Of a DNA stretch of 64,000 bases, positions 8,132-63,879 are shown piece by piece. Source of the stretch: a virus. The stretch covers positions 231-64,230 of IMG/VR virus record IMGVR_UViG_3300045988_094874; one strand, 5' to 3'. The notes below the pieces were generated by a model. It was given only the letters and a program-made list of their open reading frames with translations, was not told the DNA's origin and did not search any database. The position numbers and the translations under genes were made by a program. The stretch's first letter is position 1; every line of letters begins with the position of its first letter.

Positions 8132-8204
8132 CAAAGTACAGATAATACACTATAAAGAAAGAGAGCTATGTGTTATTCTTTAGCTGGTATTATCTGTACT
8201 TTGG
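8132..8204. repeat. about 73-bp palindromic element, copy A
   Basis: CAAAGTACAGATAATA...TATTATCTGTACTTTG forms a perfect 16-bp inverted repeat with extra inner pairing. The same element occurs three times at 63.4-63.8 kb. Confidence 0.65.
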
Positions 8205-8212
8205 TATAAAGA

Positions 8213-8440
8213 ATGGTTATAAAGTATGTGAGAATAAAAGATACATATTATGAGGATGAAATGAGAGGTGCTGAGGGAGTTATACTAAGAGGAGATACTG
8301 AAGATGTCCTGTTAGGATTTCCTCTTAATAGTCCTTTTGGTTGGTATGACCCGGGGGAAAGTACAGAGTACAAGTGCTGGTGGATTTCTGAAGACTATTT
8401 AGAGCATATAACAACAATCACAAGGAGTGAGTTTAAATGA
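8213..8440 (+). CDS. small paralog 1 of a tandem five-gene family
   Basis: Shares VRIK.DYY.DE...G.IL..D.L(L/I)GFPL(N/D)SPFGWYD...W(W/Y)IS.(D/E)YL...RS(E/K)F(K/N) with the next gene. ATGA stop/start overlap. Confidence 0.6.
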   Translation: MVIKYVRIKDTYYEDEMRGAEGVILRGDTEDVLLGFPLNSPFGWYDPGESTEYKCWWISEDYLEHITTITRSEFK

Positions 8441-15226: not shown

Positions 15227-18200
15227 ATGAAGAAAAGAGATTTAATGGTACTAGCCAAACGGCTATCATCTGTAGAGCTCTTTTCCCTTGATATTGAAAC
15301 CACAGGACTTGATAGGTACAGGGATAAAATAGTCTCTGTGCAAATCAGCTATGACTTTAACGGTAAGGAATATGACCATTTCATTTGGTGGGAGCAGTAC
15401 ACTAAAGAGGAATGGCAAGCCTTTCTGAAAGCCATAGCCAAACTGAATATGGTCACACACAATGGTAAGTTTGATATTCTGTTCCTATATGTTCACACAG
15501 GGGTATTCATGGAGCTTTACATGGATACACAGGTGCTGGCTCATGTATCAGGTGAAGTAGAGCTTGGACTAAAACCTCTTGTGGTAAAATACTTTGGTGA
15601 TGATTATGACGTGAGCAAGGAAATCAAAGTCTCTGGTAAGCGAGACAGCCTGACTACACTCAAAGGATTTATCACAAAGTATTTCACAGGAACTGAGCTT
15701 GTCATGGAACAGACTACTAAGGAAAATGCTGAGGCTTTCTTATCAGGGCTAAAGACCAAGGCACAGAAGAACGCCTGTGAACTGATTGACAATGAGGACG
15801 GAACTTTTGACGTAACCCGAAAATGGGTACACAAAGACCGAACAGCCATGAATAAATTAGCTCAGCAGGTCTATGATGAGCTTGAAGGTGGTATACTTAT
15901 CTCAGGAATGTCCGTAGAAGCCACTGACAGGCTCTGTAAGGCGTTTGAAAGTCTTGATAGTACAATCATACTAGAGACGCTAAAAGATGTGACACAGGAG
16001 CTTGTAGAGGCTAATAACAAGAAGCTAGTGGTCTATGGAAAGAAGGACACACGATATACACTTAAGTTAGTGCCAATATTCAAGAAAATCATCAAGAAAT
16101 ACAAGATGATTAAGGTCTATAAGCATGAAATGAGAGCTTACAAAGCCTATTCTATCATTGAGAAACAGGGTATCTATATTGACCCTAATAGACACAAGGT
16201 GAGTGAACAGTTGAGAGCTGAGTACACAGAGTACCTTGAGGAGCTCAATGAGGTGGCTGAAATCAACTGGAACTCAACACAGCAGGTAGCTAAGGTCTTA
16301 TTTGGTAAGAAGGGCGCTCCTGTGATTGTGGATGGAAAAGAGGTTGGAAAGTCCTTGGGACTGAAACCTGTGAAGAAGAGTGCCTCAGGAAATCCAAGCA
16401 CAGATGATGAAACTCTTGTGGAGCTATCCGCTGTGAGTGAGGTTGCTAAGAACCTGAGAGAGTATAAGAGACTGACTAAGCTGGATACATTTATCAAGTC
16501 ATGGGACGAGATAGCTGTGGACGGTCAAATTCACCCTAGCTTTAATATCACAGCTAGGACAGGAAGGACAACCTGCTCAAACCCTAATCTTCAGCAAGTC
16601 CCACAAAATAGTAATGTACGTGGAATTATCTATGCTAGACCGGGCTACAAGATTATTGAGTGCTTTAGTGGAGACACAGAGGTACTCACAGAGAAGGGAT
16701 GGCAGAGATTTGATAGCCTTGATAAGGGAATTAAACTGGCACAATATGATTGTGAGAGTGAAGAGATTTCCTTTGAACAGCCTTTACGATATATCCACCA
16801 AGAGAATAGACCCACCTTCCACTATGAAGATAGGAATACTAGTGTATTTGCTACAGCCAATCATAATGTACTGACTAGGTATACTAACCGAGTAACTAGG
16901 AAACATCCTTTTAAGGAGACTAACTTTAGCAGAGCCAACCAGTTCATAAATGCAGGCTTCTATACTACTAATTACAAGTATTCTGATAAATACACAAGAT
17001 TTCTAGCAATGTTTATTTCTGATGGTTATATGGACAACTATGGTAATATTTCTTTTGGTTTCAGAAAGCAGAGAAAGATTGATAGGTGTAAGCATGTTCT
17101 GGAAGAATTAGGTATTTCCTTTAAATTAAACCAGTATACAAGGAAAGGAAATGCTAAAGACACTATGTTCAGGATTGGTAAGGTCATGACACAGTTTGTG
17201 AATGAATACTCAGAGAGCTACAAGGTATTATCTACCAAAACAGCCTTTGAGCTTAACCCTGCTGTATACTTAGAAGAGGCTCAGTATTGGGATGGTACTC
17301 CTATAGTTAAGGGCAAGAGTGTGAGATTTGTATCTACACAGAAGAAAACACTTGAAGTCATGCAACTTATGGGTGTATTCTGTGGGATTAAAATGGTTAT
17401 TCACAGAGATAATCATAGGGATAAAGACTGTCATAAGTATGCTTATTATGTAAATTACAAACCAAAAGGAGATAGATTTACATGCATGAATGAGCAAGGG
17501 GTCGACTTCTCAAATCCTACTTACCAAGATGTTTACTGTATCACAATGCCACTTGGGACTTGTGTAATAAGACACAAGGGTAAGGTATCTATCCAATCCC
17601 AATGTGACCTGAGCCAAGCTGAGCTTCGAGTAGCCGCTGACTTTTCAGGAGATAAGAACATGATACATGCATATCAGTCTGGAAGTGACTTGCATAGTAA
17701 GACTACAGAGATGATGTTTGGAAATCTTGAAGGATTAGACCATGATGAGCTTAAGAGAAAACGGACTCAAGCGAAGTCATGTTTCAGTGGAGATACTGAA
17801 ATACTGACAGACAAAGGGTTTGTGCCATTTAATATGTATGATGGAGTAACTAGGGTAGCTCAGTATAATATTGAGTCACAAGAAATCAGTTACACAGAAC
17901 CGTTAGACTTTAGAATGATACCAAACCAGAAAATCTGTGTATTTGAGAATGAAAACACCTCACTAAAACTGACACCAAATCATGAGTGTATTATTCAAGT
18001 ACAGAATACTAGAAAATACATGAAAAAGATTCCTTTTGAAGAGCTGGCAGGTCATGGGCAATCTAAGTATGCTTGGGTAAATGCTGGTTATTACAACTAT
18101 GATAAAAATAAGTTCATAGATGATAAATTGACAAGATTTGTAGCCTGCTTTGTTGCAGACGGAAGTTACAGTTCTTCAAAGAACGCTATCAGATTTGGGT

Positions 18201-19273
18201 TTACAAAGAAACGCAAGATTGATAGGTTTAGGTGGTTGCTAAAAGAGCTAGGAGTATCCTGTGAGCCTAAAATACAAGGTAAGTTAAAGGTAAGTTTCTT
18301 TACACTAAGTGACTTTAAATTACTAAACCTTGTAAAGAGATACTGTACCGAGGATAAAACTCTTCTTGAGCCTTCTCTTACTGAGCTAAACCCTCTTGTG
18401 TACCTTGAGGAAGCAGGTCATTGGGACGGTCATATAAATAAGTTTGGTCTAATACTAGTATCCTCAACAAATAAGGAAACTTTAGATAAAATGCAGATAA
18501 TGGCGATACAATCAGGTGTCCGCGCAAGACTGGCTCTAAGAGAGGAAGCTCATGATAATGTAAGTAATACTTGGGAGTTGTCATATAATCTTGCTAAAAA
18601 GCCTCTGAGTAGGTTTGAAAGTAGGGATATTGACACACGAACTCACCACAAGACTAATTACAATGTCTACTGTGTAACCGTTCCTGAACATAATATTGTT
18701 ATACGCCATAATGGAAAAGTATCAATACAAGGAAACTGTAACTTCGGCTTTTTATATGGTATGCAAGCAAAATCGTTCGTGAATTACGCAAAAACCTATG
18801 GATTGAATTTATCACTCAAGGAAGCTGAGGAGTTCCGAAGTAAGTTCTTTGAAGCCTATCCGACTTTACTGGTATGGCACAGAAGGAACATTGACTTTGC
18901 TAGTAATAAAGGATATGTTGAAGCTCCGTCTGGCAGGAAACGTTTCTTGAGAGATATTTGGTCTGATGATTGGGCTAAGAAGTCTTCTGCTGAAAGACAG
19001 TCACTTAACTCAGCTGTACAAGGCTTTGCTAGTGACTGTTGTATCTCAGCTCTAGCGGATATAGTTTTCTCAGATGAGCTAGACCATTCAAGAGCAAGAG
19101 TATTAGGCTCTGTGCATGACGCTATATTAGTAGAGGCTAAGGAAGACTATGCAGAAGAAGCCTCTCAGATAGTAAAGAACCACATGGAGAACCCTTCCTT
19201 GTTTAAGCTACATAAGCTCTGTGTTCCAATGGTGGCTGATGTAGAAATCGGCAAGGGCTGGGGTATTCACTAA
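15227..19273 (+). CDS. family-A (Pol I-like) DNA polymerase with a 3'-5' exonuclease domain, interrupted by two inteins
   Basis: Exo I LDIETTGLD. Motif A (C)DLSQAELR split after KIIE. Motif B RTQAKS|CNFGFLYG split. Motif C VHDAIL. Extein length after intein removal is about 715 aa. Confidence 0.85.
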   Translation: MKKRDLMVLAKRLSSVELFSLDIETTGLDRYRDKIVSVQISYDFNGKEYDHFIWWEQYTKEEWQAFLKAIAKLNMVTHNGKFDILFLYVHTGVFMELYMDTQVLAHVSGEVELGLKPLVVKYFGDDYDVSKEIKVSGKRDSLTTLKGFITKYFTGTELVMEQTTKENAEAFLSGLKTKAQKNACELIDNEDGTFDVTRKWVHKDRTAMNKLAQQVYDELEGGILISGMSVEATDRLCKAFESLDSTIILETLKDVTQELVEANNKKLVVYGKKDTRYTLKLVPIFKKIIKKYKMIKVYKHEMRAYKAYSIIEKQGIYIDPNRHKVSEQLRAEYTEYLEELNEVAEINWNSTQQVAKVLFGKKGAPVIVDGKEVGKSLGLKPVKKSASGNPSTDDETLVELSAVSEVAKNLREYKRLTKLDTFIKSWDEIAVDGQIHPSFNITARTGRTTCSNPNLQQVPQNSNVRGIIYARPGYKIIECFSGDTEVLTEKGWQRFDSLDKGIKLAQYDCESEEISFEQPLRYIHQENRPTFHYEDRNTSVFATANHNVLTRYTNRVTRKHPFKETNFSRANQFINAGFYTTNYKYSDKYTRFLAMFISDGYMDNYGNISFGFRKQRKIDRCKHVLEELGISFKLNQYTRKGNAKDTMFRIGKVMTQFVNEYSESYKVLSTKTAFELNPAVYLEEAQYWDGTPIVKGKSVRFVSTQKKTLEVMQLMGVFCGIKMVIHRDNHRDKDCHKYAYYVNYKPKGDRFTCMNEQGVDFSNPTYQDVYCITMPLGTCVIRHKGKVSIQSQCDLSQAELRVAADFSGDKNMIHAYQSGSDLHSKTTEMMFGNLEGLDHDELKRKRTQAKSCFSGDTEILTDKGFVPFNMYDGVTRVAQYNIESQEISYTEPLDFRMIPNQKICVFENENTSLKLTPNHECIIQVQNTRKYMKKIPFEELAGHGQSKYAWVNAGYYNYDKNKFIDDKLTRFVACFVADGSYSSSKNAIRFGFTKKRKIDRFRWLLKELGVSCEPKIQGKLKVSFFTLSDFKLLNLVKRYCTEDKTLLEPSLTELNPLVYLEEAGHWDGHINKFGLILVSSTNKETLDKMQIMAIQSGVRARLALREEAHDNVSNTWELSYNLAKKPLSRFESRDIDTRTHHKTNYNVYCVTVPEHNIVIRHNGKVSIQGNCNFGFLYGMQAKSFVNYAKTYGLNLSLKEAEEFRSKFFEAYPTLLVWHRRNIDFASNKGYVEAPSGRKRFLRDIWSDDWAKKSSAERQSLNSAVQGFASDCCISALADIVFSDELDHSRARVLGSVHDAILVEAKEDYAEEASQIVKNHMENPSLFKLHKLCVPMVADVEIGKGWGIH
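16661..17602 (+). mobile_element. intein 1 in DNA polymerase motif A, with a LAGLIDADG homing-endonuclease domain
   Basis: Starts CFSGDTEVL (Hint block A). LAGLIDADG-like LAMFISDGYMDN. Ends ...HKGKVSIQSQ followed by +1 Cys; the terminal residue is Gln rather than Asn. Confidence 0.7.
17780..18736 (+). mobile_element. intein 2 in DNA polymerase motif B, with a LAGLIDADG homing-endonuclease domain
   Basis: Starts CFSGDTEIL. LAGLIDADG-like VACFVADGSYSS. Ends ...HNGKVSIQGN followed by +1 Cys. Paralogous to intein 1. Confidence 0.75.
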
Positions 19274-24216: not shown

Positions 24217-26061
24217 ATGAAACTAAAATCATTGTCTACGGTACGCCTGCATCAAATGACCGTGTTGTTCGGAAAATCTGGTTCAGGCAAGGCAGAATAT
24301 GTAGAAAACAAAATCTACACCCCTAGTGGACCTAAACGCTTTGGTGACTTAAAAGTCGGTGATTATGTATTTGACCGATTTGGTAAGCCTACAAAAGTAG
24401 TTGGAACATTCCCACAAGGAGAGATTGACGCATATGAAGTAACTCTAGCAGATGGACGTACAGTAATCTGTAATGATGAGCACATCTGGACCACAGTAAC
24501 CTCACGAAATAGTCTTAAGGATTATACATTACGTGAAATTATTGACACAGGTGTTACTATCAAAAAGGGAGGGATTACTCGTAACCGATTTTATATTCCT
24601 ACCCATAGCTACGTCCAATTCAAGGAGCAAGAAGTTAAGGTACACCCTTATCTTGTAGGAACTTTTATTGCAAATGGAGCTTTACGCTCTAAACCTCTCA
24701 CACTATGCTCCGATGACATTTTTGTGGTAGAAAAAGTTGCTAAGATTTTAGGGGCTACTTACAAGAAGAACTCAGATAAGAATTTTAGCTATACTTTTCG
24801 AAAAGAAGGACACATTATCAAAACGGAAGAGGTATTCACAGAGTTGCTTGGTAAGTATTCTCATGAGAAGTTTATTCCTAAGGAATACCTATTTAATAGT
24901 GTAGAAGTTCGTAGAGAGCTCCTCCAAGGACTAATGGATAATGATGGTTCTATAACACCTAAGCATTCTGGAGCACACCCTTCATATTACACAGTAAGCC
25001 CTAGGCTTGCAGATGATGTAGTATTTCTTGTAAGAAGTCTTGGGTATGAGACTTATGTATATGTAGATGAACGTGAAGGGAAACGTACAGGATATGACAT
25101 TGGACTTAGAGTACCTCCACGTGAACGTAAATCACTATTCACATTGCCTAGGAAGAAAGAACGTTCTCTAGCTGTTGAGGGCAACTGCTTAAGACGACGC
25201 TATGAAATGGTTGGTATTGCTAAAGTTACAAAGCTTAATAAGAAGTTACCTATGATGTGTATTAAGGTAGATAATCCTGAAAGCTTGTACTTGTCTAATG
25301 AGTTTGTAGTAACTCACAATACTTCCGTAATCAACTCACTTCCGGGTAAAACTCTCATCATTGACACTGACCGTGGGTTAGCTTCTGTAAGCCCCACTGA
25401 TAATGTTGATGTAGCTGAGTGTTACAACTGGGAAGACATTCTTGAAGCATTTGCAATCGCTAAGACAGGCGATTATGAAAGCATTGCTGTTGACCACTTT
25501 ACAAATGTCCAAGAAATGTGCTACAAACATATTATGGAAAAATACAAAGTGGATAAAATGCAAATCCAGCATTATGGAGAAGCTTCTCCATTGCTCAAAG
25601 GACTTGTTGACCAGCTGGTCGGTTTTAGCTATGATGGTAAGAACGTCCTTGTACTTGCACAGGAAATGAGTATTAACGTTGAGGAAGATGAGGGAGAAGA
25701 TGTACCACGGGTAATCTGCCCTAACGTATCCCCAGCTGTTCGCTCTTACTTGCAAGCCTCTGCACGGATTGTAGCCCATACACAGAAGGAAAACAAGAAG
25801 ACCTTTGAAAATGGCAAGAAATCCATTGAGGAAGTTTATATTGCTCAGGTAGCAGGTAACCCTATCTTGACTACTAAAGTTACACGCAAGCCGGGAATTG
25901 AAATTCCTAACAAGATTAAGAACCCTACGTGGGCTAAGCTCACTAAACTTATCACAGGAGAAACCGCTAAGAAGGCTAAGCCTGCTAAAGAGGAAGAAGC
26001 CCCTGTGACAGAAGAAAAACCAAAACGCAAACGTGCTACTAAGAAATCAGAAGAAAAATAA
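24217..26061 (+). CDS. Sak4-like (AAA_24) recombination ATPase interrupted by an intein in the Walker A P-loop
   Basis: The extein reconstitutes LFGKSGSGK|TSV (GKSGSGKT), then LIIDTDRGL (Walker B) and IAVDHFT. K/E-rich C-terminal tail. Confidence 0.65.
   Translation: MKLKSLSTVRLHQMTVLFGKSGSGKAEYVENKIYTPSGPKRFGDLKVGDYVFDRFGKPTKVVGTFPQGEIDAYEVTLADGRTVICNDEHIWTTVTSRNSLKDYTLREIIDTGVTIKKGGITRNRFYIPTHSYVQFKEQEVKVHPYLVGTFIANGALRSKPLTLCSDDIFVVEKVAKILGATYKKNSDKNFSYTFRKEGHIIKTEEVFTELLGKYSHEKFIPKEYLFNSVEVRRELLQGLMDNDGSITPKHSGAHPSYYTVSPRLADDVVFLVRSLGYETYVYVDEREGKRTGYDIGLRVPPRERKSLFTLPRKKERSLAVEGNCLRRRYEMVGIAKVTKLNKKLPMMCIKVDNPESLYLSNEFVVTHNTSVINSLPGKTLIIDTDRGLASVSPTDNVDVAECYNWEDILEAFAIAKTGDYESIAVDHFTNVQEMCYKHIMEKYKVDKMQIQHYGEASPLLKGLVDQLVGFSYDGKNVLVLAQEMSINVEEDEGEDVPRVICPNVSPAVRSYLQASARIVAHTQKENKKTFENGKKSIEEVYIAQVAGNPILTTKVTRKPGIEIPNKIKNPTWAKLTKLITGETAKKAKPAKEEEAPVTEEKPKRKRATKKSEEK
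24292..25320 (+). mobile_element. intein (343 aa) with a LAGLIDADG endonuclease domain inside the ATPase P-loop; N-terminal residue is Ala
   Basis: Starts AEYVENKIY directly after GKSGSGK. Internal LVGTFIANGALR and LLQGLMDNDGSI LAGLIDADG motifs. Ends VVTHN followed by +1 Thr. Confidence 0.6.
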
Positions 26062-63362: not shown

Positions 63363-63436
63363 ATTTCCTCCTGAGCTATGTATCTATAATACCATAAGTC
63401 TGAACACAGTGCAAGTAAAAATTACGCTTTTTAGCA

Positions 63437-63513
63437 AAGTACAGATAATACAAGTTAAAGAAATACACATAGCTCTTAGAGCTTATTCTTTATAGTGTAT
63501 TATCTGTACTTTA
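63437..63513. repeat. palindromic element, copy B
   Basis: AAAGTACAGATAATAC...GTATTATCTGTACTTT. Confidence 0.65.
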
Positions 63514-63650
63514 CTCCTGAGCTATAGGAAATGTCACAGAGAGCTCTAAGAAATTACACAAGAGAGCCTTAGATATGACACAGAGGTGGTTAGCTCTTCC
63601 TCTCCCTGTGTTCTAATTTTCTGATATGCTATTATCTGAACTTTGCAAGC

Positions 63651-63720
63651 AAAGTACAGATAATGCATATTAAAGAAATATAGCTCTGTGTTATTCTTTA
63701 TACTGTATTAATTGTACTTT
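63651..63720. repeat. palindromic element, copy C (preceded by a half-copy at 63628-63645)
   Basis: AAAGTACAGATAATGCATATTAAAGAAATA...TTATTCTTTATACTGTATTAATTGTACTTT. Confidence 0.6.
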
Positions 63721-63737
63721 ACTATGGATATTTTACC

Positions 63738-63808
63738 AAAGTACAGATATTACACTATAAAGAATAAAATACTCTGTGCCTTTCTTTACCTTGTATTATC
63801 TGTACTTT
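63738..63808. repeat. palindromic element, copy D
   Basis: CAAAGTACAGATATTACACTATAAAGAATA...TTTCTTTACCTTGTATTATCTGTACTTT. Confidence 0.6.
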
Positions 63809-63879
63809 ACTTTTTCAACCGTTTCACTATTGAAACTTCTAACCAAATATGCTACAATATTTACATGGAGGTAAGGAAA

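Follow-up and report, generated by a model that had tools for sequence, protein, structure and literature searches.

Two related LAGLIDADG inteins, one ending in glutamine, in the predicted precursor of a phage family A DNA polymerase

The polymerase intein of Lactococcus phage KSY1 is the closest described counterpart of the locus reported here. It lies in gp096 (NC_009817), annotated as 'intein-containing DNA polymerase I', and interrupts motif B of a family A DNA polymerase at the point RTxAK[S/A]-CNF (throughout, a hyphen within a motif marks an insertion point or splice junction). Inteins that carry a C-terminal Gln, instead of Asn, before the +1 nucleophile are also known, namely those of PolII of Pyrococcus abyssi (Pab), PolII of Methanoculleus marisnigri (Mma) and the ribonucleotide reductase (RNR) of Chilo iridescent virus (CIV), and all three have been shown to splice (PMC4031507). 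In this work we analysed a 64,000-nt stretch of viral DNA (IMG/VR record IMGVR_UViG_3300045988_094874, positions 231 to 64,230; hereafter the window), in which the gene for a family A DNA polymerase is split by two related inteins: intein 1, at motif A, which ends in Gln, and intein 2, at motif B, which occupies the same site as the KSY1 intein. Gln termini, the absence of a penultimate His and the presence of several inteins in one gene are all documented already, as is the KSY1 polymerase intein; the locus is a well-supported new example of a known element and not a new kind of element.

The gene (15227..19273, + strand, as are all its parts described below) encodes a precursor of 1348 amino acids (aa) in which two inteins accompany a 3'-5' exonuclease domain and a polymerase domain, as judged from the list of open reading frames (ORFs) and Pfam. 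The phage is uncultured and about 64 kb in size, and the gene product is its replicative DNA polymerase, of family A; the identical 1348-aa protein is found on four contigs in public metagenome collections, the longest of 64,302 bp. The N-extein (aa 1-478; 15227..16660), ending in ARPGYKIIE, is followed by intein 1 (314 aa, aa 479-792; 16661..17602), which is inserted directly before the residue preceding the motif A Asp. A middle extein of 59 aa (17603..17779), running from CDLSQAELR to KRKRTQAKS, separates it from intein 2 (319 aa, aa 852-1170; 17780..18736), and the C-extein (18737..19273) extends from CNFGFLYG to the stop codon. The +1 Cys residues of inteins 1 and 2 are encoded at 17603..17605 and 18737..18739, respectively.

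The precursor gives Pfam matches to DNA_pol_A_exo1, to DNA_pol_A in three pieces (230.8 bits) and, between these pieces, to LAGLIDADG_3. When both inteins were removed in silico, the three pieces became one continuous DNA_pol_A match spanning profile positions 6-380 of 381, with a score of 270.5 bits, and the predicted spliced product was 715 aa long. The junctions formed in this way are KIIE-CDLSQAELR (motif A) and RTQAKS-CNFGFLYG (motif B). An earlier, sequence-only reading of this DNA had proposed that two LAGLIDADG inteins split these motifs and that their removal rebuilds them; the coordinates, the motifs, the Pfam scores and the predicted fold (see below) all agree with it. The GC content is 36-37% in both inteins and 42% in the exteins. 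The nearest phage in GenBank is KSY1, with about 40% extein identity in a protein-level search; relatives were found only at that level, as megablast of the polymerase gene against GenBank phages returned no match.

The boundaries of both inteins can be placed with the help of intein-free alleles. A search of 5.8 billion proteins provided relatives of the polymerase, and among the 120 matches listed about 108 carry the B-site intein only, four carry the A-site intein only (P0001, P0005, P0006 and P0007, with a B site of KRTYSKG-ANFG or KRTYSKS-TNFG) and P0010-P0017 carry both. Site A is thus empty in KSY1 (FIE-CDYSQLELR) and about 100 relatives, and site B in P0001, which is represented by contig L002 (KRTYSKG-ANFGYLYG), as well as in P0005, P0006 and P0007. 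In the intein-free alleles the +1 residue varies (C, V, Q, L, F, A or W at site A; A or T at site B), whereas it is Cys in every occupied allele, which fixes both junctions to the residue. Since a Cys begins each insertion and another Cys follows it, the junction alone could be shifted by one residue either way; this ambiguity is settled by the rules of intein structure, which demand both Cys1 and a +1 nucleophile. Boundaries elsewhere, which had been named as a possible failure of the proposal, are excluded for either intein by the empty alleles in KSY1 (site A) and P0001/L002 (site B). In about 60 of the 959-aa relatives the +1 position of site A was inspected: many intein-free alleles retain a Cys there (ILE-C-DFS), and V, Q, L, F, A or W is found in the rest. 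The retained Cys may be a relic of an intein that once occupied the site and was later lost precisely.

Intein 1 starts with CFSGDTEVLTEKGW and ends with RHKGKVSIQSQ, followed by CDLSQAELR; intein 2 starts with CFSGDTEILTDKGF and ends with RHNGKVSIQGN, followed by CNFGFLYG. Both have Cys1, T65-x-x-H68 and a Cys at block F:4 (Cys293 in intein 1, Cys298 in intein 2), and they terminate in Ser313-Gln314 (codons TCC CAA, 17597..17602) and Gly-Asn (codons GGA AAC), respectively. Blocks F and G of intein 1, VYCITMP...VIRHKGKVSIQSQ, are encoded at 17531..17602. Between the splicing blocks, intein 1 has two LAGLIDADG motifs, RFLAMFISDGY (Asp121; 16997..17029; Pfam LAGLIDADG_3, E 2.7e-6) and YLEEAQYWDGT (Asp211; 17267..17299), and intein 2 has the corresponding ADG and WDG motifs at 18134..18166 and 18401..18433 (LAGLIDADG_3, E 1.2e-4). 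The Asp residues of both motifs, the block F/G hairpin and the +1 Cys are kept in both inteins. The two are homologous, as had been claimed from their matching start and end peptides: they share 37% aa identity over the full length (BLASTP E 3e-57, far beyond chance), with the N-terminal 15 and C-terminal 13 residues near-identical, while at the DNA level there is almost no similarity between them.

The AlphaFold2 (AF2) model of intein 1, built from a 14-sequence alignment, had a mean predicted local distance difference test score (pLDDT) of 92 and a predicted template modelling score (pTM) of 0.90. Foldseek matched it best to the TliVMA intein (2e-13), followed by PI-SceI, PhoVMA and PI-PfuI, the solved inteins ranging from 2e-13 to 3e-9, and its central domain matched I-DmoI with an E-value of about 1e-6. 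PI-SceI, PI-PfuI and the Tli and Pho VMA inteins thus share with the window inteins a HINT domain with a nested two-motif LAGLIDADG endonuclease, although sequence identity is only 10-13% and the window inteins are smaller (314-319 aa). These well-studied inteins have Asp at F:4 and a His-Asn terminus. The NCBIfam model intein_Nterm matched residues 1-72 below its cutoff (20.9 against 24.5 bits), and intein_Cterm matched intein 2 with 16.1 bits against a cutoff of 15.6. Judged by these features, both insertions are predicted to be class 1 inteins with a nested two-motif LAGLIDADG endonuclease domain, and these endonucleases may be active.

The KSY1 intein resembles intein 2 in its start (CFSGDTEILT), its end (VIRHN.KVSIQGN-C) and its Cys at F:4, and it interrupts the same host protein at the same point. 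It is, however, only 35% identical to intein 2 and 28% to intein 1, and KSY1 has no intein at motif A. Moreover, its LAGLIDADG motifs have degenerate acidic residues, with RYG and DFG where the DG dipeptide would stand, in contrast to both window inteins, which keep theirs; the KSY1 endonuclease is therefore probably inactive, as far as its motifs tell. Intein 2 is an allele of the KSY1 polymerase intein, whereas intein 1 is related but occupies a different site and is not a KSY1 allele.

Most likely, each intein would excise itself after translation through the standard class 1 pathway. Splicing would begin with an N-S acyl shift at Cys1, to be followed by transesterification to the +1 Cys. 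The terminal residue would then cyclise, which in intein 1 should yield a six-membered glutarimide from Gln, in place of the reaction of Asn. Finally, an S-N shift would complete the peptide bond, giving IIE-CDLSQAELR and RTQAKS-CNFGFLYG.

To place the two inteins among their relatives we ran an exhaustive phmmer search over 1.84 billion cluster representatives, which gave 3169 homologues at E<=1e-3. It was used instead of a word-indexed search, which with intein 1 alone as query returned only 4 matches; when IMG/VR was scanned with intein 1, three distant loci (33-34% identity) were the only matches, and these were not used further. Conservation was assessed in a set of 142 sequences, composed of 140 full-length inteins from the best 150 of the 3169 homologues and the two window inteins. 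Within this set Cys1 is invariant (142/142), as is His at B:10 (100%), and Thr at B:7 is found in 94%. Cys occupies block F:4 in 140 of the 142 (99%), the Arg of 'vRRnG' is conserved in 96%, and both LAGLIDADG Asp residues are present in 96% (that of the first motif in 137/142). The penultimate residue is Gly in 89%, the terminal residue is Asn in 131 (92%) and Gln in 8 (5.6%), and the +1 residue is Cys in 83%, Ser in 11% and Thr in 5%. Given these proportions, neither the lack of a penultimate His nor the F:4 Cys is peculiar to this locus; the two traits, which the sequence-only reading had not noted, are shared by the whole family. Both inteins belong to one large family of phage replication-protein inteins, whose signature comprises Cys1, TxxH, Cys at F:4, the conserved Arg, a Gly-Asn end, usually a +1 Cys, and a nested two-motif LAGLIDADG domain.

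In phage family A polymerases, inteins of the same family are inserted at five or more points: PN-(L)QNIP, E-xDYSQ (site A of the window), DY-SQxELR, DIH-T and AKx-xNFG (site B), the last also with a variant insertion one residue earlier. Members were also found in the TOPRIM 'EGE.D' and helicase 'DE-xH' motifs (P0181-P0261 and others). These host motifs were assigned by eye from the flanking sequence. No further copies of this family were found in the window beyond inteins 1 and 2.

The near-invariance of Cys at F:4 raises the question of whether splicing in this family is purely of class 1. In the alternative, this Cys would serve as a nucleophile or relay, with a class 3-like branched thioester at block F despite the presence of Cys1, so that the family would bridge the two classes. 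The spacing from the Cys to the terminus is 21 residues, and from F:4 to G:7 it is 20-22 in the inteins Msm DnaB-1, Mle DnaB, Bvi IcmO and AceL NrdHF (PMC5222942, PMC7891396). In addition, the best sequence match of the family profile to a solved structure is the atypical class 3 intein AceL NrdHF (PDB 6zgq, E 1e-7), a split intein which likewise has S/T-x-x-H, a hydrophobic residue and not Trp at B:12, Cys at F:4 with Pro four residues on, a Gly-Asn end and no His at F:13 or G:6. Thr or Ser stands at G:5 in 59% of the family set.

Several observations speak against this alternative. The fully conserved Cys1 and the intact TxxH are the signature of class 1, while class 3 inteins lose the N-terminal nucleophile, and class 1 inteins are known that have Cys in place of Asp at F:4 (PMC4031507). 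Of the class 3 traits, inteins 1 and 2 have the Cys at F:4, but they keep the nucleophile, have Val (intein 1) or Cys (intein 2) in place of Trp at B:12, and Gln in place of Thr at G:5; they were accordingly filed as class 1. AceL NrdHF itself differs in having Ala1, a proven class 3 pathway, a naturally split structure, no LAGLIDADG domain and Ser at +1, as compared with Cys1, the +1 Cys and the Gln at G:5 of the window inteins. The AceL match covers the N-terminal half only and is modestly better than that to Spl DnaX (5e-6), and hhalign of the family profile against the window's own class 3 intein (see below) gave no meaningful alignment.

The assignment of Cys293 and Cys298 to F:4 is based on the spacing of 21 to the terminus and on the C-x3-P pattern shared with AceL NrdHF, and not on coordinates: neither a profile of the C-terminal 40 residues nor the C-terminal peptide alone matched any solved structure. 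In the crystallised form of AceL NrdHF, Ala replaces both Cys124 and Asn146 (PMC7891396), and these changes may explain the missed C-terminal match. On balance, we regard a class 3-like pathway as doubtful, and are equally hesitant about the wider idea that the family, with nucleophiles that are redundant or act in relay, is the functional link still missing between class 1 and class 3 splicing. It is nevertheless a possibility that the invariant Cys does more than replace Asp. The unusual C-terminal active site of the family could also explain why Asn changed to Gln independently at four or more insertion sites. The pattern of Cys1 together with Cys at F:4, a Gly-Asn end and recurrent Gln could inform studies of class 3 intein evolution and of the tolerance of the third splicing step.

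Under the class 1 reading, which we prefer, the residue that calls for explanation is the terminal Gln of intein 1, aligned to the Asn of 131 of the 142 family members. The A-site intein is also present in contigs L002, L003 and L004, which come from different metagenomes, with 91-99% aa identity to intein 1. The codons TCC CAA are invariant in the window and these three contigs, although the synonymous divergence (dS) reaches 0.5, and the ratio of nonsynonymous to synonymous substitution (dN/dS) of intein 1 is 0.08-0.17, alike in the N-terminal HINT, endonuclease and C-terminal HINT parts. A change from Asn (AAY) to Gln (CAR) takes two substitutions, via His or Lys. This need, and the constancy of the codon in four genomes, rule out a sequencing error as the source of Gln. 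The invariant codons and low dN/dS indicate that the Gln state is stable and under purifying selection, and represents neither error nor decay; intein 1 is thus probably functional, as judged by its pattern of substitution.

More distant A-site inteins (45-49% identity; P0006, P0010, P0012, P0125 and P0126) end in Gly-Asn, from which it follows that Gln is derived in the clade of intein 1, along with the change of the penultimate residue from Gly to Ser. Gln was also found at site B (P0008, P0009 and P0130, ending in Pro-Gln), at the PN-CQN(I/F)P site, which we take to be the PNLQNIP motif of family A polymerases (P0181, P0198, P0199 and P0225), at the DY-CQQE.R site two residues downstream in motif A (P0217 and P0242), and in another A-site fragment (P0133, ending in Cys-Gln). 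As different insertion sites cannot share one event, Asn was replaced by Gln at least four times, and a neighbour-joining (NJ) tree without support values suggests seven or more events. The Gln of this family arose independently and repeatedly from a Gly-Asn ancestor that lacked the penultimate His; the Pab PolII, Mma PolII and CIV RNR inteins reside in unrelated host proteins and belong to other intein lineages, and no sequence relationship to these was found. The sequence-only reading had called the terminal Gln a rare variant, which is correct in that the state is uncommon, but it is a recurrent minority state (8/142). P0008 and P0009, on the one hand, and P0002 and P0004, on the other, have identical extein flanks but B-site inteins only 40% identical, with Pro-Gln and Gly-Asn ends, respectively; a divergent allele thus seems to have displaced the intein previously present there.

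The same reading had also expected Gln to slow splicing. This holds for Pab and Mma PolII, where Gln slows the cyclisation step, and in Pab PolII replacement of Gln by Asn made C-terminal cleavage 20-fold faster; it does not hold as a rule, since the CIV RNR intein splices better with Gln than with Asn (PMC4031507). A slow step might be adaptive. In such a scenario Gln would act as a 'slow fuse' which, with three active-site Cys residues (Cys1, F:4 and +1), makes maturation of the polymerase conditional on redox state, temperature or time and so regulates replication. Conditional splicing through cysteine disulfides is documented for other inteins such as Msm DnaB i1 (PMC6195587), and the Gln state of intein 1 is kept under selection. 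However, nothing in the sequence data indicates regulation, and the purifying selection fits a plain need to splice equally well; the CIV RNR case tells that Gln need not be slow, and sister phages manage with Asn. We therefore consider a regulatory role of Gln unlikely.

It could also be argued that intein 1, with its Gln end and no penultimate His, is impaired in splicing or dead, leaving the polymerase non-functional or marginally produced; the slowing seen in the two PolII inteins and the failure of a curated model of the intein C-terminus to recognise intein 1 are in line with this. Yet Ser-Gln is kept in four diverged genomes, the intein has a dN/dS of about 0.1, with values no higher than 0.06 in the exteins on either side (0.015-0.06 overall, and 0.015-0.05 for the N-extein against relatives), and its protein clusters hold many member sequences from independent samples. 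Furthermore, no other polymerase was found in the window, and as intein 1 interrupts motif A of this one, a failure to splice should be lethal; the penultimate residue is Gly, not His, in most of the family. An impaired intein 1 thus seems very improbable, and we return to the reading of two splicing inteins.

The relationship between the inteins was examined with an identity matrix and the NJ tree. Against other inteins at its own motif, intein 1 shows 45-49% identity (motif A) and intein 2 shows 77-93% (motif B), whereas the A-site group and the KSY1-like B-site group share only 28-38%, a distance similar to that between intein 2 and the KSY1 B-site intein (35%). The tree joins the A-site clade to the KSY1-like B-site clade within a larger set of polymerase motif-B inteins. 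The two inteins accordingly represent separate, old, site-specific lineages, and the tree makes it plausible that an ectopic move took place long ago in this polymerase lineage, from motif B to motif A.

The recent history of intein 2 is visible in L002, a contig of 62.5 kb which contains intein 1, but has an empty B site. Over 24 kb it shares 88-96% identity with the window, with 96% nt identity upstream. Identity between the window and L002 is 87-93% until about 70 nt before the insertion point of intein 2, falls to about 50% over the last 60-72 nt, and exceeds 93% right after the intein. This upstream stretch (17708..17779) forms a co-conversion tract of about 60-72 nt, with about 50% identity to L002 and about 90% to the donor-type sequences L005 and P0002-P0004. 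It encodes ...FGNLEGLDHDELKRKRTQAKS; the same peptide precedes the P0002-P0004 inteins, which are 92-93% aa identical to intein 2, and its DNA matches L005. The empty B site on a near-identical backbone, together with the donor-type tract, indicates that intein 2 was gained recently by allelic homing from another phage. As the tract is shorter than the 177 nt between the inteins, intein 1 was left undisturbed by this event. For intein 1 we found no comparable trace of homing. With only 16/48 nt in common, the two target sites, A and B, offer no case for cross-recognition by one endonuclease.

We suggest that the endonucleases would spread each intein into empty alleles at the DNA level, that intein 1 has been inherited vertically within its clade, and that intein 2 homed recently from a related phage; their likeness would reflect an old move of the family between two polymerase motifs and not a duplication in this genome. 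The earlier proposal of intragenomic homing or duplication is in this respect partly upheld, as an old ectopic move between the motifs is plausible, but the separate lineages, the empty B site of L002 and the tract speak against such an event in the present genome. A recent duplication or intragenomic homing can hardly be entertained: although the inteins share one gene and near-identical termini, and their clades lie side by side in the tree, their 37% aa identity with essentially no nt similarity, the much closer same-site relatives of each in other genomes, the presence of intein 1 beside an empty B site in L002, the donor-type flank of intein 2 and the dissimilar target sites all contradict it.

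Taken as a whole, the account of a two-intein polymerase with class 1 splicing, Gln cyclisation in intein 1, vertical descent of intein 1 and homing of intein 2 has, in our estimate, a probability of about 0.8. A number of points weigh against it. We infer the splicing of both inteins from purifying selection and from their positions in the essential motifs A and B, and the cyclisation of Gln likewise goes beyond direct observation; the joint chemistry of Gln, penultimate Ser and Cys at F:4 is carried over by analogy with other inteins. The penultimate His (G:6) is absent from both inteins, being Ser in intein 1 and Gly in intein 2, although this His is common and not obligatory, with about 5% of functional inteins lacking it (PMC4031507). 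The NCBIfam intein models score at or below their cutoffs overall, and the C-terminal model did not detect intein 1. As to the history of the pair, the NJ tree carries no support values, and L005 represents the donor type but not the actual donor, as its intein is 87% nt identical. Moreover, the C-extein differs from L002 with a dS of 0.49, compared with 0.14 for the N-extein, which means that recombination in the polymerase gene was more complex, and left a mosaic beyond one homing event.

The locus is of use in several respects. A 715-aa polymerase is concealed in a 1348-aa precursor, and as the intein models barely detect the inteins, annotation pipelines label the whole ORF as a polymerase; in one of the collections the protein is indeed annotated just as polymerase, probably because of the scores at or below cutoff. 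The near-identical phage backbones with and without intein 2, and with a visible co-conversion tract, constitute a natural experiment on homing. Finally, a Gln-ended intein 1 with Asn-ended cousins at the same site is well suited for studies of splicing kinetics by Q/N swaps.

The window contains a third intein, of a different family. It is 343 aa long (approx. 24292..25320, + strand) and lies within a gene for a Sak4-like/AAA_24 ATPase (24217..26061, + strand), where it splits the Walker A loop (GSGK-AEYVENK...MMCIKV...VVTHN-TSVINSL). With Ala as its first residue, DEHIW (Trp at B:12), Cys at F:4, Thr-His-Asn, Thr at +1 and LAGLIDADG motifs, it has the residues of a textbook class 3 (WCT) intein, and is predicted to be one. 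The L002 homologue of this ATPase is uninterrupted (273 aa).

Upstream of the polymerase gene, and separated from it by one small ORF, lies a gene (13480..14973, + strand) whose 497-aa product combines a signal peptide and Pro-rich repeats with an LPKTG sortase motif. Its homologues have Pfam matches to Big_8 and Collagen_bind in L002, L003 and L005, and to Gram_pos_anchor in L002 and L003. It is unusual to find a cell-wall-anchored, adhesin-like gene in a phage replication module.

An 88-bp tandem repeat (1.9 copies, 79% match) is located at 63650..63811, with diverged copies at about 63427..63515 and at 8135..8219, and positions 2295..2454 of L002 match several of these copies. The repeats could be origin or terminal-region repeats. 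The cumulative GC skew peaks at about 28 kb, at the switch from the + strand replication module to the - strand genes for the tape measure, portal and terminase proteins.

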